A stretch of 64,000 nucleotides of DNA from Escherichia coli (GCF_001677475.2 NZ_CP015229.1), one strand, 5' to 3'. Counted from the first letter of the stretch, positions 3,348 through 48,425 are shown. Made by a program: numbers and translations. Notes: generated by a model from the sequence alone, not told the origin.

Positions 3348-4229
3348 TCAGCGTCCTGAATCGGTATACCCCCATACAAAACCAGGTTGGACACTAAGGT
3401 CTGATAGCTTTTCAATCCCCACCTGTGGAATGAAGTCGGTAGCCCGAAAGGGCACCCACAGACGGGTATATGCACCCTCTGTGGACTCCTTTTTATCCTG
3501 ATTTGGGCATTTATGCGGCGGGAGACGAAGACGCATTTCACCTTTATCGATGTAGCACGGTAAACCATGTTCGAGCTTTTCATGAGCCAGTCGGATGTGT
3601 GCCGCCAGCTTCATAAATTCAGTATCAATGGCCATCCGTTTAATCGTTTCATAACGACGCTCAGCCTGATCTTCACGAGTACCGCTAACATCGTTATAAA
3701 GCTCACACTGATAAGCGAATTCCCAAAAACGCAAATCAACGATCGCTTCTTTGAATTCCGCGTCGTCTTCAGGTGGCAATGCTGCACGGCGCATCTCCAG
3801 CATTTCCATTGCCCAACCATCAAGCGGCACGATACGCCATTGATAAGGTACTCCCTCTACAGACACCTCAATATCGTCAATGAAAGGTTCCACTTCCAGG
3901 ACCTGGATATCTTCAGCCAGAGCATTCATATCACAATCGTAATAATGCTCTTTACCACAATGTTTACAGGTGTAGGTGAATGTCTCGACCGGTGTTTCAC
4001 GGGAGCCGGTAAATATCCACCATAACGCGGTAATCCGGTCCTGCGCCGTCCATGTCAGGGGATCATGTTTCGCGGGTTCAGCCAGCAAGGCTTTTAAATA
4101 CGCCGTTGTCTGTTGTTCTTGTTCCTCCGGTGTTATCGAGTTGAAACGCATCGCATCAGCAATATTTGGCTGACGGAACTGGATCAATTCAGTTGGCCGC
4201 GATGGTAGCGGGAAAAGAGGTAAAAGCAT
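3348..4229 (-). CDS. Hypothetical phage-associated protein (293 aa)
   Basis: ORF track; co-directional and tightly spaced with neighbouring structural genes; Cys-rich segment CKHCGKEHYYDCD; no family recognised. Confidence 0.4.
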   Translation of the reverse strand: MLLPLFPLPSRPTELIQFRQPNIADAMRFNSITPEEQEQQTTAYLKALLAEPAKHDPLTWTAQDRITALWWIFTGSRETPVETFTYTCKHCGKEHYYDCDMNALAEDIQVLEVEPFIDDIEVSVEGVPYQWRIVPLDGWAMEMLEMRRAALPPEDDAEFKEAIVDLRFWEFAYQCELYNDVSGTREDQAERRYETIKRMAIDTEFMKLAAHIRLAHEKLEHGLPCYIDKGEMRLRLPPHKCPNQDKKESTEGAYTRLWVPFRATDFIPQVGIEKLSDLSVQPGFVWGYTDSGR

Positions 4230-4243
4230 CCTTGCTCCTTAAT

Positions 4244-4855
4244 TCAAAGAGAAAAGCTAAAGCCCAGAAGGGAAGCCAAAGAACTTGAGGATTGGTTAAA
4301 CGTGCTGTGCAATGCGAAGGTCATTGGGAATGACTTAAATTCAGTAACCTGATCTCGCGCATAGGTGACATCGCCGGTAGTGACCGGGAATACCGTCATC
4401 TCATTTTCCAGTTTGGTTAAACCGGAAGACAGTAACCGATAAATACGCACATTGAGCAAATATTTAGACGGTATATTCCCAGTACCGTCCGGATTAATCA
4501 CCCGACTTTTTGCCGTCTTAAACCAGTCCAAAACGAGGCCATCAACGGTATCCCTGACCATCATTGTTATCTGCCCAGGCGAACGCTCCGTTGGCTGAAG
4601 GATATTCCCTCCGCCGATTTTAATCGTTTCATATTCGATGCTGTAATCGTGGTAGGTAATGTCTTTGGCAAAGAAGTCTGCCCCCTCCAGTCCATCAACT
4701 TCGACAGAGAACTGCCATCCTTGCGCGAACAGCATTTTGTTCATGATGATTGACGTCAGCTTACCAACTTCCCGCTCACCAACGCCGGAGCCAAATAATG
4801 TCGTCGTTAATGCCGAAGATACATAAGACTTTACTGATGCAACATTAAGTCCCAT
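4244..4855 (-). CDS. Hypothetical phage structural protein (203 aa), possibly major tail/tube
   Basis: ORF track; 11-nt spacing to neighbours; position upstream of the SLT/tape-measure-like gene; family not recognised. Confidence 0.35.
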   Translation of the reverse strand: MGLNVASVKSYVSSALTTTLFGSGVGEREVGKLTSIIMNKMLFAQGWQFSVEVDGLEGADFFAKDITYHDYSIEYETIKIGGGNILQPTERSPGQITMMVRDTVDGLVLDWFKTAKSRVINPDGTGNIPSKYLLNVRIYRLLSSGLTKLENEMTVFPVTTGDVTYARDQVTEFKSFPMTFALHSTFNQSSSSLASLLGFSFSL

Positions 4856-4865
4856 ATCAACGACC

Positions 4866-5312
<447 letters not shown>

Positions 5313-8532: not shown

Positions 8533-9486
8533 ATGACTGATATTGATGATGTTTTCAACACTATTAATACGTTGATCAACGAGGGCGACAAGCCCCAGGA
8601 AGATATTGCTGATGAGGCCGGAATGTCTCCGGCAACACTCTCGGCTCTGCGTAAAGGAGAATACAAAGGCAATGTCGAAGGTATGCATGACAAATTACAG
8701 GAATGGTATCGGGTCTGGCAAAAAGGGCAGAATTTGTCAGGTGCCCCCGGCGTTGTGAAGACCCAGACATTTTGTGATTTGCATGAGCTGTTTAAAACAG
8801 TGCGCTCACTCGGGATTATCAGTGTTGTTGTTGGCGTACCGGGTGTCGGCAAAACTTTTGCTGCACGGGAATATTGCCGCAAGACAGCTAATGCCTGGAT
8901 GGTGACGCTTGCACCGGCACATTCGAGCGTAACGGAATGCCTCCTTGAAATAGCATATGCGCTGGAAATTAATAATCCGGGAAGAAATAAGGGGAATATA
9001 ACCCGCGCCATTCGCAGAAAACTGGGCGGTGGTAAAGAAACCAGTGGCCGTGTTAACCCCCTGCTGATTATTGATGAAGCTGATCACTTAAGTGTGGATG
9101 GTCTGGAGCAATTACGCGCCATTCAGGATGCTACTGGCGTGGGGATGGTTTTAATTGGCAACCCGAAACAGATGGCGGATGCCACCCGTCGTGGGACTGA
9201 TGAACTGGCTCGTTTGTTCAGCCGTTTTGCCATGACAAAACAACTGCGCAAAGTGAAAAAGACTGATGTGATGGCTGTAGCCAAAGCATGGGGAGTAACA
9301 CAGGAAGATGAGCTGGATCTGCTGATGAGGGTTGCCGAAAAGCCCGGGGGATTGCGTGTATTAACTCACACACTGAATCATGCGTGGCTGGCGGCGAAAG
9401 GTGCTGGTTCATCCCTGAATAAAAGTCACATAAAAGCGGCTTTTAAGGAGGCTTACAGCAACCCTAAGTTGCTGAACTGGCAGTAA
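8533..9486 (+). CDS. Transposition ATPase B (AAA+ target-DNA activator)
   Basis: 317 aa; Walker A GVPGVGKT and Walker B LLIIDEADHL; immediately downstream of the transposase as in Mu. Confidence 0.8.
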   Translation: MTDIDDVFNTINTLINEGDKPQEDIADEAGMSPATLSALRKGEYKGNVEGMHDKLQEWYRVWQKGQNLSGAPGVVKTQTFCDLHELFKTVRSLGIISVVVGVPGVGKTFAAREYCRKTANAWMVTLAPAHSSVTECLLEIAYALEINNPGRNKGNITRAIRRKLGGGKETSGRVNPLLIIDEADHLSVDGLEQLRAIQDATGVGMVLIGNPKQMADATRRGTDELARLFSRFAMTKQLRKVKKTDVMAVAKAWGVTQEDELDLLMRVAEKPGGLRVLTHTLNHAWLAAKGAGSSLNKSHIKAAFKEAYSNPKLLNWQ

Positions 9487-9498
9487 GGGGCATAAACC

Positions 9499-9726
9499 AT
9501 GATGTCACGGAATATCAAAATGGCAACGGAAGTAAAGACCTGGTTACAGGAGCGCGGCAGCCACGTCAACGAATCCTGGCTGGGCGTGGCCCGCCCGGTG
9601 CTTGAAATCACCTGCCCGCCACCAGAGCTGGTCAGAAACGCTGTCAGGATTATGGAGCATAAATCCGGGGTTGCCCGTTCAGTATGGACGGCCCGTCTTA
9701 ATGGTTGTCAGATTATCTGGAGATAA
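9499..9726 (+). CDS. Hypothetical early protein (75 aa)
   Basis: ORF track; ATG start; Mu semi-essential early region position. Confidence 0.4.
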
Positions 9727-9728
9727 CG

Positions 9729-9959
9729 ATGAGTATCAGGTCTGGAAAATATATTGAGTGGGTTAAACATTGTCAGCGCCACGGAGTGCCTTTGACGACA
9801 TATAAATGCCCAGGATGTGGCAAACAACTTATGACGCAAAGTTCCCCCGAAAATGAAGTATGGGACTCCTTCACATGTTGTCCGTGGTGTAGTGGTGTTT
9901 TCTTTAAACAGGTAGAAGGCGCGAAAATAAAGGTCAGCGCAGTTATTCAGAATCAATAA
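9729..9959 (+). CDS. Hypothetical early protein with Cys-rich zinc-ribbon-like motifs (76 aa)
   Basis: ATG at 9729 just after the previous stop; CxxC...CxxC pattern (CPGCGK ... CCPWCSG). Confidence 0.4.
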   Translation: MSIRSGKYIEWVKHCQRHGVPLTTYKCPGCGKQLMTQSSPENEVWDSFTCCPWCSGVFFKQVEGAKIKVSAVIQNQ

Positions 9960-9970
9960 GGAGAAACAAA

Positions 9971-10240
9971 ATGGCAAAAGTAATCTTTGAATTTAACCGC
10001 ATGGAAGATGTTGAGTTTCAGAAAAAAGGAGGTTTCTTTGTAGGAATGAGTGTGCAACTGGAAGAACGGTCTCCTAAGGAGCAAATCGGACCACATGACG
10101 TAATGGCAGGCATTATCAAGAGCATGGCTCCTGAAATTATTGAAAAAGCAACCCAGGAGTTGTTGAAGTCAGCCAGACAACTTGGACTGGAAGCCGAAGG
10201 CGAGTTATTCCGGTATAAACCGGATGCAGCCAAACATTAA
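9971..10240 (+). CDS. Hypothetical early protein (89 aa)
   Basis: ORF track, RBS AAGGAGAAA upstream. Confidence 0.4.
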   Translation: MAKVIFEFNRMEDVEFQKKGGFFVGMSVQLEERSPKEQIGPHDVMAGIIKSMAPEIIEKATQELLKSARQLGLEAEGELFRYKPDAAKH

Positions 10241-10260
10241 TTCATAAAGGAACTCTGACA

Positions 10261-10680
10261 ATGAAAGCCAAAATCAGAAACGAAATTCAGGCATTAATTC
10301 GAATTAAAATGCGTAATAACAATGGCAGAGACTTACGCGAGTTTATTTGCGCGCGCGAAGTTGAGGGGTATGGCGAAAAGACTTACCTGATTGCATTTGA
10401 CCATTACAGCATTTGTGCGCGTTATTGCGGGGAGGCGGTATTCCGCGCCATTACGTTTGGCAATGCCTTCAATGTGGATTTATGGGAATACGTCATGGAC
10501 CGCGAATACATCAGCGCGTCAGACCCGGACGCACGGGAGCAGTGGAAGAACATCTGGCGCGATTACCGGCAAATGGCGAAAGGCTGGACGCAGGGGACGT
10601 ATTCTTCCCTTGCCCTGAAAGCGGTTCAGCTATCTGTGCGGCATATGCTGTCGGCACGATTCGAACTCCCGGTGCACTGA
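10261..10680 (+). CDS. Hypothetical early protein (139 aa)
   Basis: ORF track; RBS-like AAGGAAC upstream. Confidence 0.4.
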   Translation: MKAKIRNEIQALIRIKMRNNNGRDLREFICAREVEGYGEKTYLIAFDHYSICARYCGEAVFRAITFGNAFNVDLWEYVMDREYISASDPDAREQWKNIWRDYRQMAKGWTQGTYSSLALKAVQLSVRHMLSARFELPVH

Positions 10681-10696
10681 TAAGGAGGGCATCATC

Positions 10697-10984
10697 ATGA
10701 TAATCCCTCGCAAAAGATGGTCACGTGAAGACCGGGAATTTATCGAAGCCAGTGTCGGGAAAATGACTGTTGAAGAAATGGCGAAAAAACTGAACGTTGC
10801 CACAAGCGCCCTGCGGGCACATGCCAGAAGGTACGGAATATCGTTGTGTGTATACAAAATCAGTGAGCACGACAAATATTTGTGTCGTGAACTTTATAAA
10901 GAAGGGGTGGCTATTCATGTCATTGCCCAAAAGATGGAATTAAGCAATCGGGCTGTATCCAGCATTGTATACAGAGAATATTAA
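10697..10984 (+). CDS. Hypothetical early protein with HTH-like repeats (95 aa)
   Basis: ORF track; RBS AAGGAGGG upstream; two helix-turn-helix-like segments. Confidence 0.4.
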   Translation: MIIPRKRWSREDREFIEASVGKMTVEEMAKKLNVATSALRAHARRYGISLCVYKISEHDKYLCRELYKEGVAIHVIAQKMELSNRAVSSIVYREY

Positions 10985-11004
10985 TTAACAGGAGCTTTAT
11001 TTAT

Positions 11005-11529
11005 ATGGCTAAACCAGCAAAACGAATCAGGAATGCCGCAGCAGCTTATGTTCCTCAATCCCGGGATGCCGTGGTGTGTGATATTCGCTGGATTGGTGAC
11101 CTGCAACGCGAAGCGGTACGACTTGAAACGGAAATGAATGACGCTATTGCTGAAATTACGGAGAAATACGCCTCACGGATTGCGCCGCTTAAAACCCGTA
11201 TTGAAACCCTTTCAAAAGGCGTTCAGGGGTGGTGTGAAGCGAACCGTGACGAACTGACGAACGGCGGCAAGGTGAAGACGGCCAACCTGGTAACCGGCGA
11301 TGTGTCATGGCGTCAGCGCCCACCATCGGTAAGTATTCGCGGTGTGGATGCGGTGATGGAAACGCTGGAGCGTCTTGGCCTGCAACGCTTTATTCGCACG
11401 AAACAGGAAATCAACAAGGAAGCGATTTTACTGGAACCGAAAGCGGTCGCAGGTGTTGCCGGAATTACAGTTAAATCGGGCATTGAAGATTTTTCTATTA
11501 TTCCGTTTGAACAGGAAGCCGGTATTTAA
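11005..11529 (+). CDS. gam: Gam-like host-nuclease inhibitor (DNA-end-binding protein)
   Basis: 174 aa, same size and early-region position as Mu Gam; sequence strongly reminiscent of the Mu Gam family (recollection, not searched). Confidence 0.6.
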   Translation: MAKPAKRIRNAAAAYVPQSRDAVVCDIRWIGDLQREAVRLETEMNDAIAEITEKYASRIAPLKTRIETLSKGVQGWCEANRDELTNGGKVKTANLVTGDVSWRQRPPSVSIRGVDAVMETLERLGLQRFIRTKQEINKEAILLEPKAVAGVAGITVKSGIEDFSIIPFEQEAGI

Positions 11530-11627
11530 TACCACCACAAATATTTAATTAGTTCACTTTCTTTTAATTATGGCGCGATGCGTCAGGGGATTGCTCGCGC
11601 CTGAATCTGATATACGGGATATAAAAA

Positions 11628-12170
11628 ATGATTAATACAAAAGTTCTGAGCGGCGTCAGCACATTATTACAGGTTTACGGGCGTCTGACCTGCGGCGTTC
11701 TGGCTGAAAAAATGAAGATGCCACCTTCCTCAATGGTGTATTTCCTGCGTGATGCGGTTGATGCCGGAGTTCTCACTGAATGCAACGGATTTTATGACGT
11801 TCCGCGCCCTCGTCCAACGCCGCCAGTAAGACGAAACGCAACAACTGAACACCCCGATGTTGATGATGCTCAATGGTGCGCGTTCCGCCGCTCTTTGCCC
11901 TGGCTGGAAGGCAATGCCATTCCGGCACTGGCAAAAGAATTCGCGACAGGCGTACTGACCTGCGAGTCGGTTTACATCGTTGCTGAAGTGGATGACGAGA
12001 TGTGCAAACAGGGAATGCCCCGTTTTGTGATGGCTTATATCGATATCCGGCTGGGTCGTTTTATTTGTGGCTCCAGTGGCTGGAATATCACCGACCACAT
12101 CCTGCGCTATCTCATTCTTGATTATTCACCGGTTCCGGCAGAAACACAGGAAATCAGCGAGCATGGTTAA
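11628..12170 (+). CDS. Hypothetical early protein (180 aa)
   Basis: ORF track; ATG start. Confidence 0.4.
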   Translation: MINTKVLSGVSTLLQVYGRLTCGVLAEKMKMPPSSMVYFLRDAVDAGVLTECNGFYDVPRPRPTPPVRRNATTEHPDVDDAQWCAFRRSLPWLEGNAIPALAKEFATGVLTCESVYIVAEVDDEMCKQGMPRFVMAYIDIRLGRFICGSSGWNITDHILRYLILDYSPVPAETQEISEHG

Positions 12171-12345
12171 GTCAACTGGCTTTGTCCTGCTGGTTGGCAC
12201 CTGCGGGAATGATGCCTGTGATGCCATTCCGGTAACGGAAAAAATCTGGCCCACAGAGCAGACATGTATGCAGGTGCAGGAACGCTTACAAAAACGCTAT
12301 CCCGGTGAAGTTTTTTATTGCGAAGAGGTATTACGAAATGAGTAA
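12163..12345 (+). CDS. Small hypothetical protein (60 aa)
   Basis: ATG at 12163 overlapping the preceding stop; ORF-track entry 12067-12345 trimmed to this internal start. Confidence 0.3.
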   Translation: MVKSTGFVLLVGTCGNDACDAIPVTEKIWPTEQTCMQVQERLQKRYPGEVFYCEEVLRNE

Positions 12346-12700
12346 GCATATTTATGACGACCCTAAATATCGGGCTGAAATGCGGGCGCAACTGGTTGTC
12401 AGTGGATATACACCGGAGCAGGCCGATACAACTATGACAGAACTGATGGGACAGCTTCCATTTGATGAAGCTGAATATGAATACTGGCTGAAGCGGTACA
12501 AGCTGGAAATTATGGAAAATACCACACTTCCATCGCTGATCAGAATAATAAAAAGCGTTGTCGACAATGCTTGTTATAGCGGTGATTGTCTGGCCGCAGC
12601 AATTGCGACCCATGCTCTGGTGAATCTGCTGGAGGTTACCGGCGCAGTTTTCCTGAATCCTGAAAAGGTATTAAGAGATGAAAATACAGATGATTACTGA
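12338..12700 (+). CDS. Hypothetical early protein (120 aa)
   Basis: ATG at 12338 overlapping previous stop (translational coupling). Confidence 0.4.
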   Translation: MSKHIYDDPKYRAEMRAQLVVSGYTPEQADTTMTELMGQLPFDEAEYEYWLKRYKLEIMENTTLPSLIRIIKSVVDNACYSGDCLAAAIATHALVNLLEVTGAVFLNPEKVLRDENTDDY

Positions 12701-13013
12701 TGCTGATTTAATGGCTGCAACCTTAGTTTCCAGTGGCATGTCAGAACAAAAGGTAAATGATTTTCTGGATAATGTCGTATACCAACACTATGAGCAGGCC
12801 AGAGAAAATTTAATTTCGGAAAAGCTCACGATGATTGCTGAATCATTAAGCCCTGCATGGATTATCGAAGAGTTGCGGGGAATCATTGCCAGCCATGATA
12901 AAGTGGCGGCAGTTGCCGCCCTCGATGTGCTACAGCGAATGAGTAAAGAGCTATTCAACACTGAATTAATTTTTAAATCCGGGGGACATAATGAGCCGCA
13001 CATCCCTGATTAA
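12678..13013 (+). CDS. Hypothetical early protein (111 aa)
   Basis: ORF track; overlaps neighbouring genes by a few codons. Confidence 0.4.
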   Translation: MKIQMITDADLMAATLVSSGMSEQKVNDFLDNVVYQHYEQARENLISEKLTMIAESLSPAWIIEELRGIIASHDKVAAVAALDVLQRMSKELFNTELIFKSGGHNEPHIPD

Positions 13014-13993: not shown

Positions 13994-14018
13994 GAAGCCG
14001 GTAAATCCGGCTTTTTTT
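13994..14018 (+). terminator. Intrinsic terminator-like hairpin GAAGCCGG-TAAAT-CCGGCTTTTTTT after mor
   Basis: GC-rich inverted repeat followed by a T-run, directly after the mor stop. Confidence 0.6.
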
Positions 14019-39257: not shown

Positions 39258-39443
39258 ATGGATGCTGTTCGTTGTAAAAACTGCAATAAATTGCTGTTTA
39301 AAGGAAGTTTTAAGCATATAGAAATCAAATGCCCTCGTTGTAAACGTTACATTGTCATGTCGAGTGCCCGGGAGCATCCCACGGAGCTGTATTGTGGGAA
39401 AAGAGAAGAAATCACGCATCCTTACAAAACCCTGCGTTATTGA
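39258..39443 (+). CDS. com: Com zinc-finger translational activator of mom
   Basis: 61 aa; [10 protein letters not shown]...CPRCKR four-Cys zinc finger closely resembling Mu Com; overlaps the mom 5' end. Confidence 0.8.
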
Positions 39444-40089
39444 GTATGAAGGCCGTATTGTCGGCTATGGTTCAAGGGAACTGCGCGTTGAAACCATATC
39501 CTGCTGGCTGGCCCGCACAATCATTCAGACAAAGCACTATTCCCGCCGTTTTGTGAATAACTCCTGGTTGCATCTGGGGGTATTCAGCGGACGTGATCTG
39601 GTTGGCGTTCTCCAGTGGGGATACGCCCTTAATCCCAACTCAGGGCGTCGGGTCGTGCTGGAAACGGATAACCGGGGCTATATGGAACTGAACCGCATGT
39701 GGTTACACGACGACATGCCCCGCAACTCTGAATCACGGGCTATCAGCTACGCACTGAAAACCATCAGGTTACTGTATCCATCAGTGGAGTGGGTTCAGTC
39801 CTTTGCAGACGAACGCTGCGGACGTGCAGGTGTTGTGTATCAGGCATCTAATTTTGATTTTATTGGTAGCCATGAAAGCACGTTCTACGAGCTGGACGGC
39901 GAGTGGTATCACGAGATAACGATGAACGCGATTAAGCGTGGAGGACAACGAGGCGAGTATTTGCGGGCTAATAAGGAGCGGGCGGTGGTACACAAATTTA
40001 ATCAGTATCGCTACATCAGATTCCTGAACAAGCGCGCAAAAAAGCGATTAAATACCAAGCTATTCAGGATTCAGCCATACCCGAAGTGA
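39394..40089 (+). CDS. mom: Mom DNA-modification protein (anti-restriction)
   Basis: Frame open from 39352; start placed at GTG 39394 (231 aa, start uncertain); last gene before the prophage right end as in Mu. Confidence 0.7.
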
Positions 40090-40154
40090 TCTCACTTAAT
40101 GAATAAAAAAGCAGCGGCCAATGCCGCTGTTTCGTTTGAAGCGCGAAAATTAAA

Positions 40155-40204
40155 GTTTTCGCATTTATCGTGAAACGTTTTCGCGTTTTTCGTGCGCCGC
40201 TTCA
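40155..40204. repeat. Prophage right terminus (Mu attR-like transposase binding sites, ends ...GCGCCGCTTCA)
   Basis: Reverse complement reads TGAAGCGGCGCACGAAAAACGCGAAAACGTTTCACGATAAATGCGAAAAC, nearly identical to my recollection of the canonical Mu right end. Confidence 0.7.
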
Positions 40205-40207
40205 GCG

Positions 40208-40609
40208 ATGACCCCAAACGGGGAAATGTATTATCCTGATGCTGTTTATAGTTCAGATTATTCATCGCAAGCAATGCCTGGTGATCGTGAAACAGTAGCA
40301 GGTGCTTCTCACTTGTTTATTCATGAAATGATGCATGTTTGGCAATATCAGAAAGGGTATGCAGTTAAGTTGCGTGGTTTATTTTCCTGGGCGGCAAATT
40401 ATCATTACGATCTTAATTTACAGTCAATTTCTTCTTATTCCATGGAACAACAAGCATCTATAGTTGCTGATTATTGGCTATTAATTAACTATGGACTGGT
40501 GGCTGATTTGGCAAATGTTAACTATGTAGGTGATACAACTGAATCAGTGAACACTCTATCGGAAAAATACAAAAAGGTGCTTAATTTTTTTCCTGCGGGT
40601 GTCATATGA
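40208..40609 (+). CDS. HEXXH motif protein (putative zinc metallopeptidase-like toxin domain), possibly a 5'-truncated remnant
   Basis: 133-aa ORF starting 4 nt after the prophage terminus; HEMMH signature; stop overlaps the start of the next gene (ATGA). Confidence 0.45.
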   Translation: MTPNGEMYYPDAVYSSDYSSQAMPGDRETVAGASHLFIHEMMHVWQYQKGYAVKLRGLFSWAANYHYDLNLQSISSYSMEQQASIVADYWLLINYGLVADLANVNYVGDTTESVNTLSEKYKKVLNFFPAGVI

Positions 40610-40962
40610 AGAGATTCTTTTTGTTTTTCTTTTTGTCGGGATGCACTGTTGGTGATTATGTTCGCCCATTGTTACCCGGTAGTGTATATTTGCAAGACGG
40701 ACAGATTTGTTCAAAACCAGACGATGGGAATATTATTTCAAATTATGTTTTATATGAAGGTAAATATGGCAATGCAATAAAGTTGAAAAGAGTGACAGGT
40801 CAGTTCGAACCCGTATGTATTGATATAAGTGAGCTATCTTCAGATGTTATGTATATCGGGAAATATATGCTCTCTTCCGGAAGTAAAAAAGAATACTATG
40901 GTTTTAGCATAATTAGAACCGGAGAACGTATTTTAAGACTTGATGATAATCATATCAAATAA
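40606..40962 (+). CDS. Lipoprotein, candidate immunity protein
   Basis: 118 aa; signal peptide with lipobox (MKRFFLFFFLSGC); AT-rich; translationally coupled to the upstream HEXXH ORF. Confidence 0.5.
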   Translation: MKRFFLFFFLSGCTVGDYVRPLLPGSVYLQDGQICSKPDDGNIISNYVLYEGKYGNAIKLKRVTGQFEPVCIDISELSSDVMYIGKYMLSSGSKKEYYGFSIIRTGERILRLDDNHIK

Positions 40963-41183
40963 CAGATTAAATAATTTTATTAGTTTTATTAATGTACTTT
41001 AGGTGAATGTTTCCACCAGGTTAACATGACGGTGCATTCTTCAAGGCATATATGGTTGATAGTATCTTCAGTAGCATGCATAAGTATTGAGATGTTTTAT
41101 GCCAGCTACGAATATATTGCATGTTTTATTCTCTGTAAGATTTCTTATTAGCACTTATCCATTTCTAGTTAAAAGGATTAATT

Positions 41184-43178
41184 ATGAGTTTTGCAGCTAC
41201 AGATTATCCATCCGGCGCACTAACTGGATCGGGTACACATAACGTGACTTTGAGCGGCAGCGCAGTTCCTGATGGAATGTTACTGTTTGCAAGCTTAGGG
41301 GGTACAGAAACAGTAGGGGAACTATTTACTTATTCTATTAAATTAAAAACTCCTGACATCCTGAACCTGGGCTATGTTTCCCCCGCAGCCAACCTACAGC
41401 TCAAACCGATGGTGGGCAAAGATCTGTGCGTCAATATCGAATTGGATGGCGGCGGAAAACGTTACATCAGCGGGCTGGTGACGGCGGCACGCGTGGCTGG
41501 TCATCAAGGACGTTCGGTGGTGTATGAACTGCGGCTCGAACCGTGGTTAAAAATACTGACCCACACTAGTGACTACAAAGCGTTTCAAAATAAAAACGTG
41601 GTGGAGATCCTGGATGAGGTACTGGATGAGTACCCCTGGCCAGTGGAAAAACGACTGGTGGAAAATTATCCGACTCGCGCCTGGCAGGTGCAGTACGGTG
41701 AAACAGATTTCGATTTTATTCAGCGCCTGATGCAGGAGTGGGGTATCTACTGGTGGTTTGAGCACAGCGAGAACAGTCACACGTTAGTGCTGGCTGATGC
41801 CATTAATGTCCACAAGGCATGCGCAGATTCGCCGCTGGTGTGTTATTACCAGAAAGGGCTGAAACTGGACAAGGAGTTTATCCATACCATCACAGCAAAT
41901 GAAAGTCTGCGCAGCGGACAGTGGGTGCTGAATGATTTCGACTTTATGAAGCCGCGTTCACTGCTGAAGAGCACCGTGGCTAATCCGCGTGAAACCGGCC
42001 TTGCTGAATATGAGCACTACGAATGGCCGGGAGATTACTTCACAAAGAGTGAAGGTGAAATGCTGACACGCATTCGCATGGAAGAACAGCGTAGCCCCGG
42101 TAGTCGGGTACAGGGCAGCGGCAATATTCGTACCCTGATAACGGGTTTTACCTTCACCCTGGAAAACTATCCGACAGCCGAAGTGAACCGGGAATATCTG
42201 CTGGTACAGACCACGCTATTTATACAGGACAATGCGCAACACAGCGGCCAGGAGCAGCATTTCTCTTACTCAACCAGCTTTGAACTGCATCCCACCAGCG
42301 AAGTTTACCGCCCACAACGAACCCTGTGCAAACCCCACACTAAAGGCCCGCAGAGCGCAATCGTCACCGGCCCGGCAGGGCAGGAAATCTGGACAGATAA
42401 ATATGGACGGGTGAAAGTTCAGTTTGGCTGGGATCGTTACGGTAAGAATGACGAAAATAGTTCCTGCTGGGTCCGTGTCAGTTATCCGTGGGCGGGTAAA
42501 GGATTCGGTGGCATTCAGATCCCGCGCATTGGTCAGGAAGTACTGGTGGATTTCAAAAACGGTGATCCGGATTTACCGATAATTGTTGGGCGTACCTACA
42601 ACCAGGACACCATGCCACCGTGGGGACTACCGGGCGCAGCGACGCAAAGCGGATTTTACAGTCACACTATCGGCGGCGGCCCAACCAATGCCAACGCACT
42701 ACGTTTTGAGGATAAACCTGGCGGTGAAGAGGTCTGGCTACATGCCGAAAAAGATCAGCGGATTGAAGTAAATAATAATGAAAGCCACTGGGTGGGCAAT
42801 AATCGCCTTAAAGTCATTGATAAAACAGAAACAGCGATAATTGGTGAGGAACGTTCTCTTACAGTTCAGATGGATGATACCTCCCTTGCCGGACAAAACA
42901 AAACGATTCAGGCCGTACAGAATTTACGCCTTGCTGCGGGAGATTCCATAATTCTTAGTTGTGGGAACACTATCCTGCAAATGACCAGTGACGGAATATT
43001 TAATATAACCTGTAAGAATTTTAATATTACTGCAACAGAAAATGGAAAGATAAATACACAATCAGGTCAGCTTGATTTAAATATGAATAACAGGGCGGCA
43101 GATATACTTCCGCCTGGAACATCGGAAAAAACAGCCCTTCAATTGGCGATAGACGTCGCCTTCATGACTAAAAAATAA
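41184..43178 (+). CDS. vgrG: Type VI secretion system spike protein VgrG
   Basis: 664 aa with conserved VgrG gp27/gp5-like core (e.g. [38 protein letters not shown]); AT-rich promoter region upstream. Confidence 0.85.
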
Positions 43179-43228
43179 ACAAAAACCATCATTAAATAAT
43201 TTATTAATTTAAAAGGACTCATATCATT

Positions 43229-43681
43229 ATGACGGAGTATTATCTCAATGAAACTGTTGTAAGTTTTTCCGGGAATATTATTCAGGACAGTACTATTAAT
43301 ATGCTTCGCCTCAGCGATCCCGACGCTGCACTCATTATCAGCCGGGGCCAGATGCAGGAAGGAGACGAATTAGCCTCCCAGATTGAACAGCAAATGAAAA
43401 AACTGGAGAAACAGGTAAAGGATCTTCACTACACGCCCGTTCAGGTAACACGGGTGGGGATTAATGACGGTGAAGAAGGACTGGAAATACAGAGCCAGTT
43501 TCTCCGGGGTAACGAGCAGGTGTACCAGTGTCAGGTGGCATTTGTATTGCCGGGTGAGCGGGTCATGATGGCCTTCACCTACGCCCGAACCACACCGCTG
43601 ACCCCGGCAGATATGACGCGCTGGGCTGAAATTAAAAAGAATCTGCGCTTCAGGATGCGGCAGGAAGCCGGGACGAATTAA
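43229..43681 (+). CDS. DUF1795 (EagR-like) effector chaperone
   Basis: 150 aa between vgrG and a prePAAR-Rhs gene; typical position and size. Confidence 0.6.
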   Translation: MTEYYLNETVVSFSGNIIQDSTINMLRLSDPDAALIISRGQMQEGDELASQIEQQMKKLEKQVKDLHYTPVQVTRVGINDGEEGLEIQSQFLRGNEQVYQCQVAFVLPGERVMMAFTYARTTPLTPADMTRWAEIKKNLRFRMRQEAGTN

Positions 43682-43699
43682 TCACACAGGGAACGGGAC

Positions 43700-46600
43700 A
43701 TGGAAGAGGCATTCTGGGCGGCAAGGCAGGGTGATGCCCTGCTGCATACGTCGTTTATGGCAGATGTGCTGGGGGCAGTTGTAGAGGTTGCCGCCACAGC
43801 CCTGGTGGATGTTCTGGTTGTCGGAACCATGGCGGCGCTGGGCGGAGTTGAAGTGGCAACGCTGGGCTGCTCAACCATTTTAGCGATCGGTATAGCAACA
43901 GCGGTATTTATGTCGTATCAGGGCTGGAATGACCGAATCAGTAGGGAAAGTGAGCAACTGGCGAACTGGCTTTTCCCGCCTCAGATTGAAGGTTACATCC
44001 TCACCGGCTCTGGCGACACATGGATCAACAGCAAACCTGCCGCGCGGGCCGCGGCGACTGCGGCATCGCGGCAGGACATTGAGGCGCAGGAGGCGCAGGC
44101 GAAGGCGGAACAGGAAGAAGCGCAGCGTCAGGAGGATGCCAGAACGTTCCTGGATGTGGCCGGGGAATATCTGGAAATGGCGGGGGCCATAGCCCTGGCG
44201 GTTAACCCGGTGACAGGGCCTGTGCTGATGTCCCGGGCGCTGCACGACCAGCTCAGTACGGAAGAAGGGCGTTCTGAAATGGTGGATGGCGTGACACATT
44301 TTGTGTCGGAACTATGGCAGCCCACCGTGGCCAGTGCGGCCCCGGGCTCCACCCCGACCCCTGACGATAAAATCGACTGCCATAAACATCCCTCCTCACT
44401 GACGCAGTTTCTCGCACAAAAAAAAGCCGCCTTTCTGGATGACCCCCTGGGAACGGCCCTTAACCTGCTGAGTCCGGGCGGTATGCTGGAAACCGCCTTT
44501 CAGGGAGTGAATGCGGTTATTGGCAGCATCAGTAATCTGTTCAAAGGCGATGATGAACCGCCCGCAGCGGAATATATCGCGGAAGGCGCGCGGGATGTGC
44601 GTATCAACAGCCAGCCGGCGGCACGCAGCGGGGCACGCTGCACCTGCGAGGCCAGGGTGGTGAATGAGCCGGGGAACGGGGCGTTTGTGTCACCGGATGT
44701 CCGCATTGGCGGTCCGTTACTGGTGGTCAGGGATATCAGAAGCGGCAGGTCGCAGATAACCCTGGTGGCAACCGTGGCGCTGATGTTTCTTCGCCCGGGC
44801 AAAATGCTTTCTAAAATCGCCTGTTTTGCTGCCAGTGTCGGGATGGGGGTGATGACGCAGAAGGCCATCAGTGCCCTTCCGCATCCGGTCAATGCCGCCA
44901 CCGGAGCCAAATATCTGGCCGATGACGATGATTTTGACTTCAGTCTGCCGGGCCACTTTCCGCTGGACTGGCAGCGCGTGTACAGCAGTCGTGACGACCG
45001 CACGGAAGGGATGTTCGGGCAGGGCTGGAGTGTAATGTATGAAGTCAGCCTCGAGCGCACGCCGGGTACTGCTGACGAAAACTGTATGACCTTTGTGTCG
45101 GGCATGGGACGACGTCTGGATATGGAGGCCGTGCTGCCGGGGAGCGGGTTTTACAGCCCCGGCGAAGGACTGGCAGTACGGCGGGGTGAGCAGGGGCACT
45201 GGCTTATCAGCAGCGATGACGGGCAGTTTTTTCTGTTTGAGGCCGACCCGCGTCACCCGCAGCGCCAGCGGCTGAAAATGCTGGGCGACCGCAACAGCAA
45301 CTGTCTGAATCTGTACTACGACGAGCTGGGGCGCATCACGCAAATCAGCGGTGAACAGCAGCGTCCGTGCATCCGTCTGCATTATGAACTGGCGGCGCAT
45401 CCCCGGCGGGTGACACAGATTTATCAGCATTTCCCTGAGATGGCTCCTTTACTGCTGCGTCGTTACCGCTATGACGAGGCCGGCGACCTGAACGGCGTGT
45501 ACGACAGCACGGGGCACCTGCTGCGCGAGTTTGCTTACGACGAAAACCACTGCATGACCCTGCACCGCCAGCCGGGCGGCGAAGGGTATTATTACCAGTG
45601 GGGCTGGTATGAAGGCCCGGATGACGCAGCGTGGCGGGTGACGGGGCACCACACGGACAGCGGTGAACAGTACCGGCTGGCGTGGAGCCTGGCGGCACGC
45701 AGGCTGTGCGTGACGGACGGGCTGGGGCGCACGCGTTATCATCAGTGGGACGCGCAAAATCAGGTGACGGCGTACCAGGACGAAGCCGGGCAGGTGACGA
45801 CGTTCCGCTGGAGCGACGAAGAACGGCTGTTACTGGGAATGACCGATGCGCAGGGCGGCAAATGGCGCTATGTGTATGACCGGCAGGGGCATATCACGGA
45901 GACGCACGACCCGCTGGGGCGGGTGGCACAGACACAGTGGCACCCGGTGTGGCACCAGCCGGAAACGGAGGTGGACGCGGCGGGGAACAGCTGGTGCTGT
46001 GAGTACGATGAACGCGGCAATCTTCTTGCGGTGACCGACCCGCTGCAGCAGAACACCCGGTATCAGTATGACCGCCACGGCCAGGTGGTGCAGATAACGG
46101 ATGCGCGCGGGGGGAATAAATACCTTCAGTGGAACGAAGACGGGCAGCTCATGCGGCACACGGACTGTTCCGGCTCGCAGACGGCCTGGTTCTACGACGA
46201 ACGCACGCGGCTGATACGGATGACAGACGCGCAGAGCCACAGCACGCGCTACGGGTATGACGACAGCGGCCACCTGACGGAGGTGATACTGGCGGACGGC
46301 CGCACGGTGAATTACCAGTCGGACGCGGCGGGCAGGCTGGTGAAGTACACCAGCCCGATGGGGAGGATAACGCGCTGGCAGCGGGACGGGCAGGGCCGGG
46401 TGCGCAGCCGGACAGACGCGACGGGGCGCAGGACGGCGTTCGGGTACGATGCCTACGGGCGTCTGGTCACGCTCACGAACGAGAACGGAGAAAGCTACCG
46501 GTTCCGCCATGACGTGCTGGACCGTCTGGCGGAGCAGATAAATCCGGACGGCTGCCGCCAGACGTACCGCTACAACGCGCTGAACGCGGTCACGGAAGTG

Positions 46601-48415
46601 GTGTTCACCGGGGACCGGGGCGGTGAAATCCGCCACCGGCTGGCACGTGATGCGGCGGGCCGGCTCACGGCAAAGGAGACAGCCGATGGCCATACGGAAT
46701 ACGTCCATGATGCGGCAGACCAGCTACTGGAAATCCGCCGCCGACGGTCGGATGCCGGGGAAACAGACGCACCGGAGATTATCCGTTTCAGTTACGACAG
46801 ACTGGGGCGGATGCTGACCGAGGAGACGGCGCAGGGCGTCCTGACCCATCAGTACGATGAACTCAGCAACCGGACAGCCACCACCTTTCCGGATGGCAGA
46901 ACGCAGCGTCATCTGTACTACGGCAGCGGCCATCTCCAGCAGATAAATCTGGACCGGGAGGTCATCAGCGAGTTCACACGTGACGCCCTGCACCGGGAAG
47001 TGCTCAGAAGTCAGGGGCGACTGAGCACGCGGCAGCTTTATGACCCCGCCGGGCGGCTGAAGCGCAGGGAGACATACAGCGGGATGCGCGGGGTGGTACC
47101 GGAGACGTTCACGGACCGGCAGTACAGCTACAGCGGCGAGGATGAATTGCTGAAGACGCGGCACAGCCGGCGGGGGGAAACGGATTACGTCTACGACCCC
47201 ACGGGGCGCATCACGGCGTGCCGCTCGGAGGATGAGGGGTATCTGGCGAGCTGGCAGTACGACGCGGCGGGAAACCTGCTGGGGAGGCGCGCGGGGGAAA
47301 GGGCCACGGCAGAAAACAGCGTGGTGCCGTTCAACCGGCTGATGTCTTACCGTGGTGTGCACTACCGTTATGACGAATTTGGCCGGACGGTGGAAAAGGA
47401 GGGCCGGAGCGGCACGCAGAGTTACCGTTATGATGCGGAACACCGGATGGTGGAAGTGACGACAGCGCGGGGGACATACCGGTATGTGTACGATGCGCTG
47501 GGGAGGCGGACGGAAAAACAGCACATCAGCCCTGACGGTAAAGCGTACAACCGGACGACATTTTTATGGGACGGAATGCGGCTGGCGCAGGAGAGCAGGC
47601 CGGAGGGAATAAGCAGCCTGTATATCTACAGCGACCCGGGGAGTTATGAACCGCTGGCGCGGGTGGATAAGGCGGGCAAAGAGGGCCCGAACCGGATACT
47701 GTATTTTCACACGGATGTGAACGGTGCGCCGGAAGAGATGACGGACAGTGACGGGAAAATCGTGTGGGAGACGGGGTATCAGGTCTGGGGTAACACGATA
47801 CAGGAGAAGGACCACGGCGGGGTGGAGCAGAACCTGCGCTACCAGGGACAGTACCTCGACAGGGAAACGGGGCTGCACTACAATCTGCACAGGTACTATG
47901 ATCCGGATGTCGGGCGGTTCATGGTAACGGACCCGATAGGGCTGGCGGGGGGGCTGAATCTTTATACTTATGCGCCTAATCCAGTAAGCTGGATAGATCC
48001 CCTTGGTTTAAGTTGTTACTTTAATTCTAAGTCTAATCGCTGGCATGACAGGCAGACAGGTCGTTTTACAAAACGACCAACAGATCCTTCAGAATTAGTT
48101 CATAATGGCCGAATTGACAAGGCTGATATAGATGTTTGGGCTAGTCAAGGAGGGATTCCAAATACATGGGGGCATGATCCGTTAAAATTCCCCAGTGGTG
48201 GTTTTAAATATGATGCTGGTAATTATACTGTTCATGGTCATGGTGCTAATCCATCTGCGGCAGCTAAATTTCCTAATTCTAATGCGGCAAATGGGCCGAC
48301 AGCGAGCATGAAAAATACTTCAACAGGTGAAGTGTTTAGAACCGATGGAACTTGGGGGACATTCAAATCAGATGCCAATGGTGCTCATATCCCCCTTGAT
48401 GGCTCACCTTATTGA
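43700..48415 (+). CDS. rhs: Rhs-family polymorphic toxin (T6SS effector) with prePAAR motif, TM segment, YD repeats and variable C-terminal toxin domain
   Basis: 1571 aa; N-terminal AARQGDALLH (prePAAR) plus hydrophobic helices; many YD-type repeats; conserved DPIGLAGGLNLYTYAPNPVSWIDPLGL boundary followed by about 135 aa of unrelated AT-rich sequence. Confidence 0.85.
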   Translation: MEEAFWAARQGDALLHTSFMADVLGAVVEVAATALVDVLVVGTMAALGGVEVATLGCSTILAIGIATAVFMSYQGWNDRISRESEQLANWLFPPQIEGYILTGSGDTWINSKPAARAAATAASRQDIEAQEAQAKAEQEEAQRQEDARTFLDVAGEYLEMAGAIALAVNPVTGPVLMSRALHDQLSTEEGRSEMVDGVTHFVSELWQPTVASAAPGSTPTPDDKIDCHKHPSSLTQFLAQKKAAFLDDPLGTALNLLSPGGMLETAFQGVNAVIGSISNLFKGDDEPPAAEYIAEGARDVRINSQPAARSGARCTCEARVVNEPGNGAFVSPDVRIGGPLLVVRDIRSGRSQITLVATVALMFLRPGKMLSKIACFAASVGMGVMTQKAISALPHPVNAATGAKYLADDDDFDFSLPGHFPLDWQRVYSSRDDRTEGMFGQGWSVMYEVSLERTPGTADENCMTFVSGMGRRLDMEAVLPGSGFYSPGEGLAVRRGEQGHWLISSDDGQFFLFEADPRHPQRQRLKMLGDRNSNCLNLYYDELGRITQISGEQQRPCIRLHYELAAHPRRVTQIYQHFPEMAPLLLRRYRYDEAGDLNGVYDSTGHLLREFAYDENHCMTLHRQPGGEGYYYQWGWYEGPDDAAWRVTGHHTDSGEQYRLAWSLAARRLCVTDGLGRTRYHQWDAQNQVTAYQDEAGQVTTFRWSDEERLLLGMTDAQGGKWRYVYDRQGHITETHDPLGRVAQTQWHPVWHQPETEVDAAGNSWCCEYDERGNLLAVTDPLQQNTRYQYDRHGQVVQITDARGGNKYLQWNEDGQLMRHTDCSGSQTAWFYDERTRLIRMTDAQSHSTRYGYDDSGHLTEVILADGRTVNYQSDAAGRLVKYTSPMGRITRWQRDGQGRVRSRTDATGRRTAFGYDAYGRLVTLTNENGESYRFRHDVLDRLAEQINPDGCRQTYRYNALNAVTEVVFTGDRGGEIRHRLARDAAGRLTAKETADGHTEYVHDAADQLLEIRRRRSDAGETDAPEIIRFSYDRLGRMLTEETAQGVLTHQYDELSNRTATTFPDGRTQRHLYYGSGHLQQINLDREVISEFTRDALHREVLRSQGRLSTRQLYDPAGRLKRRETYSGMRGVVPETFTDRQYSYSGEDELLKTRHSRRGETDYVYDPTGRITACRSEDEGYLASWQYDAAGNLLGRRAGERATAENSVVPFNRLMSYRGVHYRYDEFGRTVEKEGRSGTQSYRYDAEHRMVEVTTARGTYRYVYDALGRRTEKQHISPDGKAYNRTTFLWDGMRLAQESRPEGISSLYIYSDPGSYEPLARVDKAGKEGPNRILYFHTDVNGAPEEMTDSDGKIVWETGYQVWGNTIQEKDHGGVEQNLRYQGQYLDRETGLHYNLHRYYDPDVGRFMVTDPIGLAGGLNLYTYAPNPVSWIDPLGLSCYFNSKSNRWHDRQTGRFTKRPTDPSELVHNGRIDKADIDVWASQGGIPNTWGHDPLKFPSGGFKYDAGNYTVHGHGANPSAAAKFPNSNAANGPTASMKNTSTGEVFRTDGTWGTFKSDANGAHIPLDGSPY

Positions 48416-48425
48416 GATTATTAAT

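Follow-up and report, generated by a model that had tools for sequence, protein, structure and literature searches.

What are the ten small genes that lie between the transposition gene B and gemA of a Mu-like prophage, and which of them act on the host? We examined this question for positions 9499-13013 of a 64,000-nucleotide (nt) stretch of Escherichia coli DNA (GCF_001677475.2, NZ_CP015229.1; one strand, 5' to 3'), referred to here as the window, in which all positions are counted from the first letter. An initial annotation, made from the sequence alone, had described this block as a cluster of small early genes and as candidates for host takeover or anti-defence. Our results indicate, with a probability of about 0.82, that 9499-13013 is the semi-essential early (SEE) region of a Muvirus-like E. 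coli prophage and that its genes are accessory cargo. The block is an ordinary variant of the known Mu SEE region with a different accessory complement and is no new kind of system.

Megablast searches gave approximately 85% DNA identity to Mu, D108, SfMu, and Yersinia Mu-like phages over 9499-12141 only. The gene order of the window is B-kil-gp6-gp7-gp8-gp9-gam-gp11-...-gemA-mor-terminator; from B to gp11 (B, kil, gp6, gp7, gp8, gp9, gam, gp11), it agrees with the annotated maps of Mu, SfMu, and D108. Six of the window genes are orthologues of Mu genes with 78-91% amino acid (aa) identity: Kil, 85%; gp6, 78%; gp8, 78%; gp9, 85%; Gam, 91%; and gp11, 83%. The position between B and gemA, the strand, the operon logic, and a conserved spacer between gam and gp11 are likewise shared with the SEE regions of Mu, D108, and SfMu. 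The synteny and the DNA identity thus bear out the view, already taken in the initial annotation, that this is the Mu-type semi-essential early region. The genes that bound the block also belong to Mu-like phages. GemA was 80-82% identical to GemA of Mu and D108, and relatives carry the annotation "gp16 family/GemA". Mor showed 62% identity to Mu Mor, and its identity to the Mor proteins of E. coli prophage relatives was 98-100%. B matched the B proteins of several Mu-like contigs in IMG/VR with 97-98% identity, but its identity to Mu B was only about 40%; AAA_22 and Phage-MuB_C domains were found in B of the related loci.

The window differs from Mu in three respects. The transposition module shares no more than 25-40% identity with A and B of Mu, and the gp7 slot holds an allele of the D108 type and not the Mu (gnarl2) allele. 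Furthermore, gp12 (phrog_2314, DUF5420 family), gp13, gp14, and the antisense gene gp15 are absent, and three other genes (o8, o9, and o10) stand in their place. In Mu, the semi-essential region comprises 14 ORFs (open reading frames) and lies within an extended early transcript that covers A and B (PMC3325207). Mu can grow without this region, which is toxic to the host; its deletion brings host viability after infection back to 100%, and the region accounts for host killing (PMC3325207).

The ten ORFs, all on the + strand, fill the interval between the stop codon of B (9486) and the start codon of gemA (12991). They are numbered o1 to o10 in the following list, together with their neighbours.

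8533-9486, + strand, B, transposition ATPase and upstream boundary, 317 aa
9499-9726, + strand, o1, Kil (orthologue of Mu gp5), basic, 75 aa
9729-9959, + strand, o2, gp6-like, Cys-rich putative zinc ribbon, 76 aa
9971-10240, + strand, o3, gene of the gp7 slot, D108 gp7 type, 89 aa
10261-10680, + strand, o4, gp8-like, basic, 139 aa
10697-10984, + strand, o5, gp9-like, basic, putative DNA-binding protein, 95 aa
11005-11529, + strand, o6, Gam, 174 aa
11530-11627, + strand, conserved gam-gp11 spacer, 98 nt
11628-12170, + strand, o7, gp11-like, 180 aa
12163-12345, + strand, o8, four conserved Cys and a short hydrophobic N-terminus, 60 aa
12338-12700, + strand, o9, acidic, helical, 120 aa
12678-13013, + strand, o10, acidic, helical, 111 aa
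12991-13542, + strand, GemA, downstream boundary, 183 aa
13539-13988, + strand, Mor-type activator of the middle operon, 149 aa
13994-14014, + strand, intrinsic terminator (8-bp stem, then TTTTTTT) that closes the early operon

The intergenic distances from o1 to o7 were 2, 11, 20, 16, 20, and 98 nt, and from o7 onward the ORFs overlapped by 8, 8, 23, and 23 nt, the last value being the overlap of o10 with gemA. The same frames are called by RefSeq/PGAP in related E. coli prophages. All ten ORFs gave PHROG family matches, essentially end to end, with E values of 1.6e-24 to 3e-101, and no family match was obtained for the antisense and alternative-frame ORFs of the block. The median ratio of nonsynonymous to synonymous substitutions (dN/dS), calculated with orthologues in up to 59 related loci, was 0.10-0.31 in all ten ORFs, which indicates purifying selection. 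Because of the full-length PHROG matches, these dN/dS values, and the silent alternative frames, the ten-gene pattern is not a product of chance, and the earlier count of about ten small, tightly coupled genes between B and GemA is confirmed. Public records of E. coli already contain all ten proteins in identical form, under the names "hypothetical protein" or "Gam family protein" (ANO89003-ANO89010 among others), and identical proteins were found on 8-698 independent contigs. By homology, the identity of the region and its gene set are established.

These data bear directly on the disfavoured explanation that the small ORFs, or some of them, arose by chance or are what is left of decaying genes in a defective prophage. 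Relatives with a frameshifted gp7-slot gene or gp8 would fit it, as would the prophage flanks, which come from two replicons and meet apparently unmatched ends (described below). The intact state of the ten ORFs, their full-length family matches, their dN/dS values, the occurrence of identical proteins on many contigs, and the lack of families in alternative frames argue against it, and we regard this explanation as very improbable. The frameshifted gp7-slot gene and gp8 copies were observed in related E. coli prophages (L004, 3261-3529; L005, 3551-3971; and P0154). These copies indicate that individual SEE genes decay in some lineages, though selection is purifying overall.

Apart from PHROG, the family databases gave few matches. 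When the ten proteins were searched as a concatenate, Pfam recognized only Gam and Gp11_C, and nothing exceeded the curated cut-offs of NCBIfam for the ten proteins. PADLOC recognized no defence component among them; its only match was a chance-level helix-turn-helix (HTH) match (E 0.0023) to the gp9-like protein. None of the ten proteins has the look of an enzyme. Sequence and profile searches of the PDB, which were run with the concatenate and with alignments of the gp8, gp11, gp7-slot, and acidic-paralogue families, detected Gam only, and the remaining matches had E > 0.1 or were artefacts. The designed repeat protein 7rdr was rejected as an artefact of summed repeats.

The only convincing terminator is the one that follows mor (13994-14014), and D108 carries an annotated rho-independent terminator in the same place. 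A scan of the block revealed no promoters or terminators above shuffle expectation, and a search of 5-15 kb against Rfam (E <= 1) gave only a sub-threshold match to sroD at the operon terminator. This arrangement suggests that the SEE region would be the distal part of one early transcript, ner-A-B-SEE-gemA-mor, which would end at 13994-14014. In the lysogen such a transcript would be repressed, and its expression would begin only minutes after infection or induction; the ten accessory genes would be translated by coupling from a single mRNA. Comparable early accessory regions are the pL operon of lambda (kil, gam, cIII, and others) and the early operons of the Pseudomonas Mu-like phages D3112/DMS3 (Tip, Aqs1). 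These also consist of small, coupled, dispensable early genes whose products bind host proteins and whose content is mosaic, but no sequence relationship to the window genes was detected. Neither Gam nor Kil of lambda is related in sequence to its Mu namesake.

We compared the gene content of 35 close loci, which comprised Mu, D108, SfMu, two E. coli chromosomes, and 30 contigs from IMG/VR, the latter being anchored on Gam. The genes kil, gp9, and gam were found in all 35. The gp8 gene was missing in 6 of them, gp11 and o8 were frequent (o8 in approximately 20), gp6 and o10 each occurred in only about one-third, and o9 occurred in 4. The gp7 slot held at least five allele classes, which showed identities to o3 of at least 90%, 65-76%, 58%, and about 40%, or were of the Mu type. 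Across these classes, the kil and gp8 genes that flank the slot stay 76-100% identical. The distance from B to gemA varied from 2555 to 4831 nt. The mosaicism of the region is evident from these loci.

The host-directed character of the block is clearest for Kil and Gam, which are established by homology. Mu Kil kills the host and blocks its division, and Mu Gam is a Ku-like binder of DNA ends (Mu literature). The kil gene comes immediately after B, an arrangement shared with Mu, D108, and SfMu, and its product matched phrog_2743, "Kil protein for bacterial septation inhibition", over the full length (E 1.9e-39; dN/dS 0.10). This strong homology identifies the predicted product of 9499-9726 as Kil, the host-killing, division-blocking early protein, and it would be expected to act in this way here. 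In regards to o6, Pfam Phage_Mu_Gam (PF07352) matched the full length with E 4.1e-40, phrog_491 matched with E 2.3e-72, and PDB entry 2p2u, "host-nuclease inhibitor protein Gam", matched with E 9e-7; the dN/dS value was 0.12. The Gam-like nuclease inhibitor named in the initial annotation is upheld by the PF07352 match of 11005-11529. In comparison with the Gam/Ku family (PF07352; PDB 2p2u), the window protein is an ordinary member without notable differences. Its 91% identity to Mu Gam points to a Ku-like double-strand-end binder and inhibitor of host exonucleases, which would bind ends and block RecBCD. A Gam dimer would cap the double-strand ends of the linear infecting genome and shield them from RecBCD and other exonucleases.

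The gene of the gp7 slot is the next candidate for a host-directed role. Silas et al. screened approximately 200 phage accessory genes in wild E. coli (bioRxiv 10.1101/2023.04.06.535777; Nat Commun 2025, PMC12373910). One of them, gnarl2, is Mu E6/Mup07 (gp7, NP_050611) and is a counter-defence accessory gene (PMC12373910). Its expression caused a shift of the O-antigen banding and raised T5 infection up to 10^5-10^6-fold in some ECOR strains; the host target of Gnarl2 is not known (PMC12373910). Its authors also considered that the change in lipopolysaccharide (LPS) may serve to exclude kin phages (PMC12373910). The same screen included Mu gp6, gp8, gp13, gp14, and gp15, and none of these was named among the genes with a phenotype (PMC12373910).

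The o3 protein matched phrog_2230 (E 8.8e-36), was 74% identical to D108 gp7, and showed the highest dN/dS value of the block, 0.31. No BLASTP similarity to Mu gp7 and no tblastn match was found. Mu gp7 nevertheless matched phrog_2230 collinearly (E 0.009), and hhalign of the o3 type against the Mu gp7 type gave a probability of 62.5% with E 7e-5 over 70 columns. A hidden Markov model (HMM) of the o3 type, searched against 6392 ORFs, recovered every Mu gp7-type protein at full length with E 7e-4 to 5e-3, and unrelated proteins appeared only above E 4. Both types belong to the size class of 40-90 aa, are 87-89 aa long (o3, 89 aa; Mu gp7, 87 aa), begin with MAKVI[FI]E[FI], end with a C-terminal His, and lie between gp6 and gp8, and the two allele types are mutually exclusive in the 35 loci. 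These results indicate that o3 is probably a remote homologue of Mu gp7, that is, of Gnarl2. No pairwise similarity was found between the two, the central region has fully diverged, and the O-antigen phenotype is known for Gnarl2 alone; remote homology does not establish a shared function. The AlphaFold2 (AF2) model of o3, of moderate confidence (predicted local distance difference test, pLDDT, 78; predicted TM-score, pTM, 0.59), consists of a beta-hairpin and two helices. A fold search with this model gave nothing with E <= 0.001 in BFVD or PDB (best E 0.099 and 1.9, respectively). The top Foldseek match in BFVD was an 82-aa protein (E 0.099, TM 0.57-0.61). As a divergent allele of the gnarl2 family, o3 would most likely bind a host protein of the envelope or O-antigen pathway and change the LPS.

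The other Mu-type genes of the block, gp6, gp8, gp9, and gp11, raise the question of whether they are directed at the host at all. The gp6-like protein matched phrog_3786 (5e-38; dN/dS 0.13). It contains 6 Cys and the motifs CPGC (residues 27-30) and CCPWC (CPWC at residues 51-54), and these knuckles are conserved in the homologues. The zinc-ribbon matches in NCBIfam were weak and fell below the cut-off (TIGR02605, E 8e-4, 19.4 bits against a cut-off of 31.3). The description of 9729-9959 as Cys-rich holds, and its zinc ribbon is a putative one. The gp9-like protein matched phrog_323, "transcriptional regulator, D5-like" (3.8e-26), and contains two HTH-like units; its matches to sigma-70 region 4 and to a Cbp1-like HTH were below the cut-off. 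It is kept at 42-50% identity in distant Mu-like prophages. The reading of 10697-10984 as an HTH-repeat protein agrees with the phrog_323 match. On this moderate HTH evidence, gp9 most likely binds DNA and would tune phage or host transcription or replication.

Two ORFs had been described in the initial annotation as having no recognizable family (10261-10680 and 11628-12170), and this needs correction. The former, gp8-like, belongs to phrog_3690 (3.9e-80; dN/dS 0.26). Its homologues are restricted to Enterobacterales at >= 68% identity, and no match was found for it in Pfam, NCBIfam, PADLOC, or PDB. The latter, gp11-like, belongs to phrog_1949 (3.1e-101) and carries Pfam Gp11_C (PF25754; 2e-38) at residues 91-168, a domain that was matched in all nine aligned members of the gp11 family; Pfam detected no other domain in this alignment. 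The families phrog_3690, phrog_1949, and Gp11_C carry no known function, and a literature search for Mup06, Mup08, Mup11, Mup12, and DUF5420 found nothing relevant. The N-terminal residues 9-53 of the gp11-like protein gave non-significant matches to MarR and Lrp/AsnC (E 0.7-1.4). The protein may thus combine an N-terminal winged helix with Gp11_C and most likely binds DNA, on weak HTH evidence; like gp9, it would tune phage or host transcription or replication. The gp6-like and gp8-like proteins would be small non-enzymatic binders, as would the products of o8, o9, and o10.

From these properties, most of the uncharacterised genes could instead serve the transposition, replication, and transcription of the phage and not host defences. 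In this explanation gp9 and gp11 would be DNA-binding regulators, gp6 would be a zinc-ribbon binder of nucleic acids, and the arm and cim phenotypes would reside here. The classical phenotypes arm (amplified replication of Mu), cim (control of immunity), and lig were mapped to this region of Mu. The HTH-like units of gp9, its retention together with kil and gam in distant Mu-like prophages, the faint MarR and Lrp-like matches at the N-terminus of gp11, the neighbouring regulators gemA and mor, and the lack of a reported counter-defence phenotype for Mu gp6 and gp8 are all consistent with this explanation. Against it stand the dispensability of the Mu region for growth and its toxicity to the host (PMC3325207). 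The gene content is also highly variable among close relatives, which is unusual for core regulators, and at least kil, gam, and gp7 are host-directed. We consider this explanation, the main rival, possible but doubtful for part or most of the set. According to the initial annotation, its host-takeover label would fall if all ORFs were assigned to known replication or regulatory families; the ten ORFs as a whole did not fall into such families.

A side observation concerns gene numbering. The gene order of SfMu (L001, 5105-6193) differs from that of Mu (L002, 4378-5438): SfMu gp11 (DUF5420) corresponds by orthology to Mu gp12, and Mu gp11 has its orthologue in SfMu gp12. A gene number can consequently not be carried over from one record to the other.

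The spacer of 98 nt that separates gam from gp11 hardly varies among the window, Mu, D108, SfMu, and E. coli prophages, and it is more conserved than the genes on either side. It is kept in SfMu even though a different gene comes after it. The spacer consists of an AT-rich tract followed by a predicted 7-bp GC hairpin, GGCGCGA/TCGCGCC (11572-11601). The hairpin fold was no more stable than that of shuffled sequences (z -1.0). The spacer gave no Rfam match, and it has no T-run and is therefore not a typical intrinsic terminator. It may be a site of RNA processing or pausing or a protein-binding site.

The distal genes o8, o9, and o10 stand in place of Mu gp12-gp15, and their PHROG families have no assigned function. 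The o8 product matched phrog_16556 (1.6e-24; dN/dS 0.28), and its ATG overlaps the gp11 stop by 8 nt. It occupies the slot of Mu gp13, a 60-aa double zinc finger, without similarity to gp13, and its four Cys are conserved in all homologues. The protein starts with MVKSTGFVLLVGTCG, a short hydrophobic stretch followed by Cys that bears a faint likeness to a lipoprotein or export signal; the residues at -1 and -2 do not fit a lipobox. The o9 product matched phrog_27371 (2.7e-75). Its homologues in 5.8 billion clusters came only from E. coli and Shigella, with >= 84% identity, and an exhaustive phmmer search of 1.84 billion representatives found only two true distant relatives, P0166 and P0167, with 33% identity. 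The genes for P0166 and P0167 adjoin gemA in otherwise different Mu-like prophages. A 3495-aa protein, P0165, was rejected as a homologue of o9; it is an adhesin with VCBS/cadherin-like repeats, and its match summed 15 stretches of low identity. The o10 product matched phrog_1988 (6.1e-43), a family shared with SfMu gp14 (39% identity).

An hhalign comparison of the o9 and o10 families gave a probability of 92% with E 6e-7 over 97 columns, and the HMM of each family detected members of the other. On this profile evidence, o9 and o10 are remote paralogues and belong to a GemA-adjacent family of other Mu-like phages. With net charges of -9 (o9) and -8 (o10) and isoelectric points of 4.6-4.8, they are the most acidic products of the block, although only mildly so, and both are predicted to be entirely helical. 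We took a net charge of about -20 or more per about 110-170 aa, or homology to Ocr/ArdA, as the mark of a DNA mimic. No product of the block was acidic enough, and no PHROG, Pfam, or PDB link to the Ocr, Ard, or Klc families was found. Neither a significant fold (o10 model) nor a significant profile match was obtained for o9 and o10. The AF2 model of o10 (all-helical, pLDDT 66, pTM 0.31, best E in BFVD 1.7) was discarded as being of low confidence.

The boundaries of o9 are formed by two direct repeats, each of which contains the Shine-Dalgarno sequence and the start codon of a gene.

12322-12341, + strand, junction repeat copy 1, GAAGAGGTATTACGAAATGA, Shine-Dalgarno sequence and start codon of o9
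12662-12681, + strand, junction repeat copy 2, GAAAAGGTATTAAGAGATGA, Shine-Dalgarno sequence and start codon of o10

The two 20-nt copies were identical at 17 of 20 positions. In loci that lack o9, a single hybrid copy of the repeat was present and o8 was joined directly to o10. The C-terminus of o9, VLRDENTDDY, repeats VLRNENTDDY, the C-terminus of the 65-aa variants of o8. The single copy in the o9-less loci and the flanking repeats indicate gene turnover by recombination at conserved translational-coupling junctions, of which o9 is a clean example of gain or loss of a cassette. Such turnover at junctions of a Shine-Dalgarno sequence and ATG would be the pattern expected for genes that engage variable host factors.

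Variable prophage cassettes often carry defence genes, and o8, o9, and o10 could accordingly be prophage defence or superinfection-exclusion factors that benefit the lysogen and not counter-defence factors of the infecting phage. The hydrophobic N-terminus of o8 followed by Cys, with its faint likeness to the signal of an exported protein or lipoprotein, points in the same direction, as does the idea of the gnarl authors that an LPS change excludes kin phages (PMC12373910). These genes, however, lie in a repressed early operon without a promoter above shuffle expectation and should thus be silent in the lysogen. The ten proteins gave no PADLOC match, and they are too small for the enzymes and sensors of known defence systems. 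We consider a defence function of o8, o9, and o10 in the lysogen unlikely.

Host-directed roles in Mu are established for the whole region, for kil, and for gam, and gp7 is a counter-defence gene there, of which o3 is a remote relative only. The host-takeover or anti-defence label of the initial annotation is reasonable but generic: it stands for the block as a whole, for Gam and Kil, and tentatively for o3, and for the remaining genes it is only a label. The further proposal that the phage appears well equipped for anti-restriction is backed only by Mom and Gam.

Several findings weigh against the explanation of the block given here. For seven of the ten genes, no homologue has been characterised by experiment. 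The link of o3 to gnarl2 is weak, with no BLASTP match and an hhalign probability of only 62%, and the central two-thirds of o3 cannot be aligned to Mu gp7 by eye, so that its function may differ. The fold searches with the o3 and o10 models gave nothing significant, and the o10 model itself is of low confidence. The charges of o9 and o10 are far from those of the classical DNA mimics, which are much more acidic. The silence of the screen on Mu gp6 and gp8 is weak evidence against a counter-defence role under the conditions used. Finally, the prophage may be a recombinant with unmatched ends, which casts doubt on lytic expression of this copy.

Combining the evidence on the gp7 slot and on the distal genes, we tentatively propose a joint reading that we consider less than probable, in which these two loci would be in an arms race with variable host factors. 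The gp7 slot would be a hypervariable gnarl locus whose alleles target different host proteins of the envelope or O-antigen, the window allele being uncharacterised. The o9/o10 family, including SfMu gp14, P0166, and P0167, would be a family not recognized before, of early host-binding and possibly counter-defence proteins that are shuffled as cassettes through the conserved junctions of Shine-Dalgarno sequence and ATG.

Most of the 14 semi-essential early ORFs of Mu lack a function though Mu is a model phage. The present variant reveals no new principle, and nothing in the block would surprise a Mu specialist, but it offers three handles: a second, strongly divergent allele in the gnarl2 slot, the gemA-adjacent paralogues, and the exchange of cassettes. 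A comparison of o3 with Mu gp7 could show what sets the target specificity of small LPS-modifying proteins, and the gemA-adjacent paralogue family is present again in distant Mu-like prophages. Should one of the seven uncharacterised genes neutralise a defence of wild E. coli, the small catalogue of counter-defence genes of transposable phages would become larger; if none does, the block is routine prophage cargo.

The ends of the prophage were also examined. The mom gene (39352-40089) encodes a protein 95% identical to Mu Mom and lies approximately 115 nt from the right end of the prophage, as in Mu, in agreement with the earlier placement of mom at the right end. The right end (40141-40204) is of the Mu type and carries TGAAGCGGCGCACGAAAAACGCGAAAA on the - strand, with 1 mismatch to Mu. 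At the left end (5153-5310), three ATTCAAGATA repeats lie at 5169, 5240, and 5291, and Mu-type CGAAA sites are absent. Transposase A was only about 25% identical to A of Mu and D108, whereas the SEE genes and Mom were 78-95% Mu-like. The element may have arisen by recombination between two Mu-like lineages and may be unable to transpose. A search for natural phages that pair the left end of the window with a right end of the Mu type found none among IMG/VR contigs, which may be truncated: the exact 39-mer of the left end was absent, and none of the contigs with the 26-mer of the right end was among those with a window-type B.

The flanks of the prophage come from two replicons. The left flank (left of 5153, compared over 3500-5152) was 99.6% identical to IncY P1-like phage-plasmids of approximately 100 kb; it matched 515 plasmid places and 14 chromosomal places, and the homology breaks inside a plasmid coding sequence at 5152/5153. 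The right flank (right of 40204; 40205-48500) is chromosomal, with 99% identity. The source genome contains an apparent second Mu-like copy approximately 148 protein accessions upstream, in which Gam (ANO88858) equals ANO89006. The flanks suggest a fusion of a P1-like plasmid with the chromosome via two Mu-like prophages, and equally an assembly chimera across a prophage that is present twice. The right flank holds hypothetical genes and the following features.

41184-43178, vgrG of a type VI secretion system (T6SS), followed by a DcrB-like gene
43700-48415, Rhs

The G+C content was 0.61-0.64 across the 1571-aa Rhs ORF (43700-49000 region) and fell abruptly to 0.38 at 48-49 kb; a pattern of this kind usually marks an Rhs C-terminal toxin tip that has been swapped together with its immunity gene.

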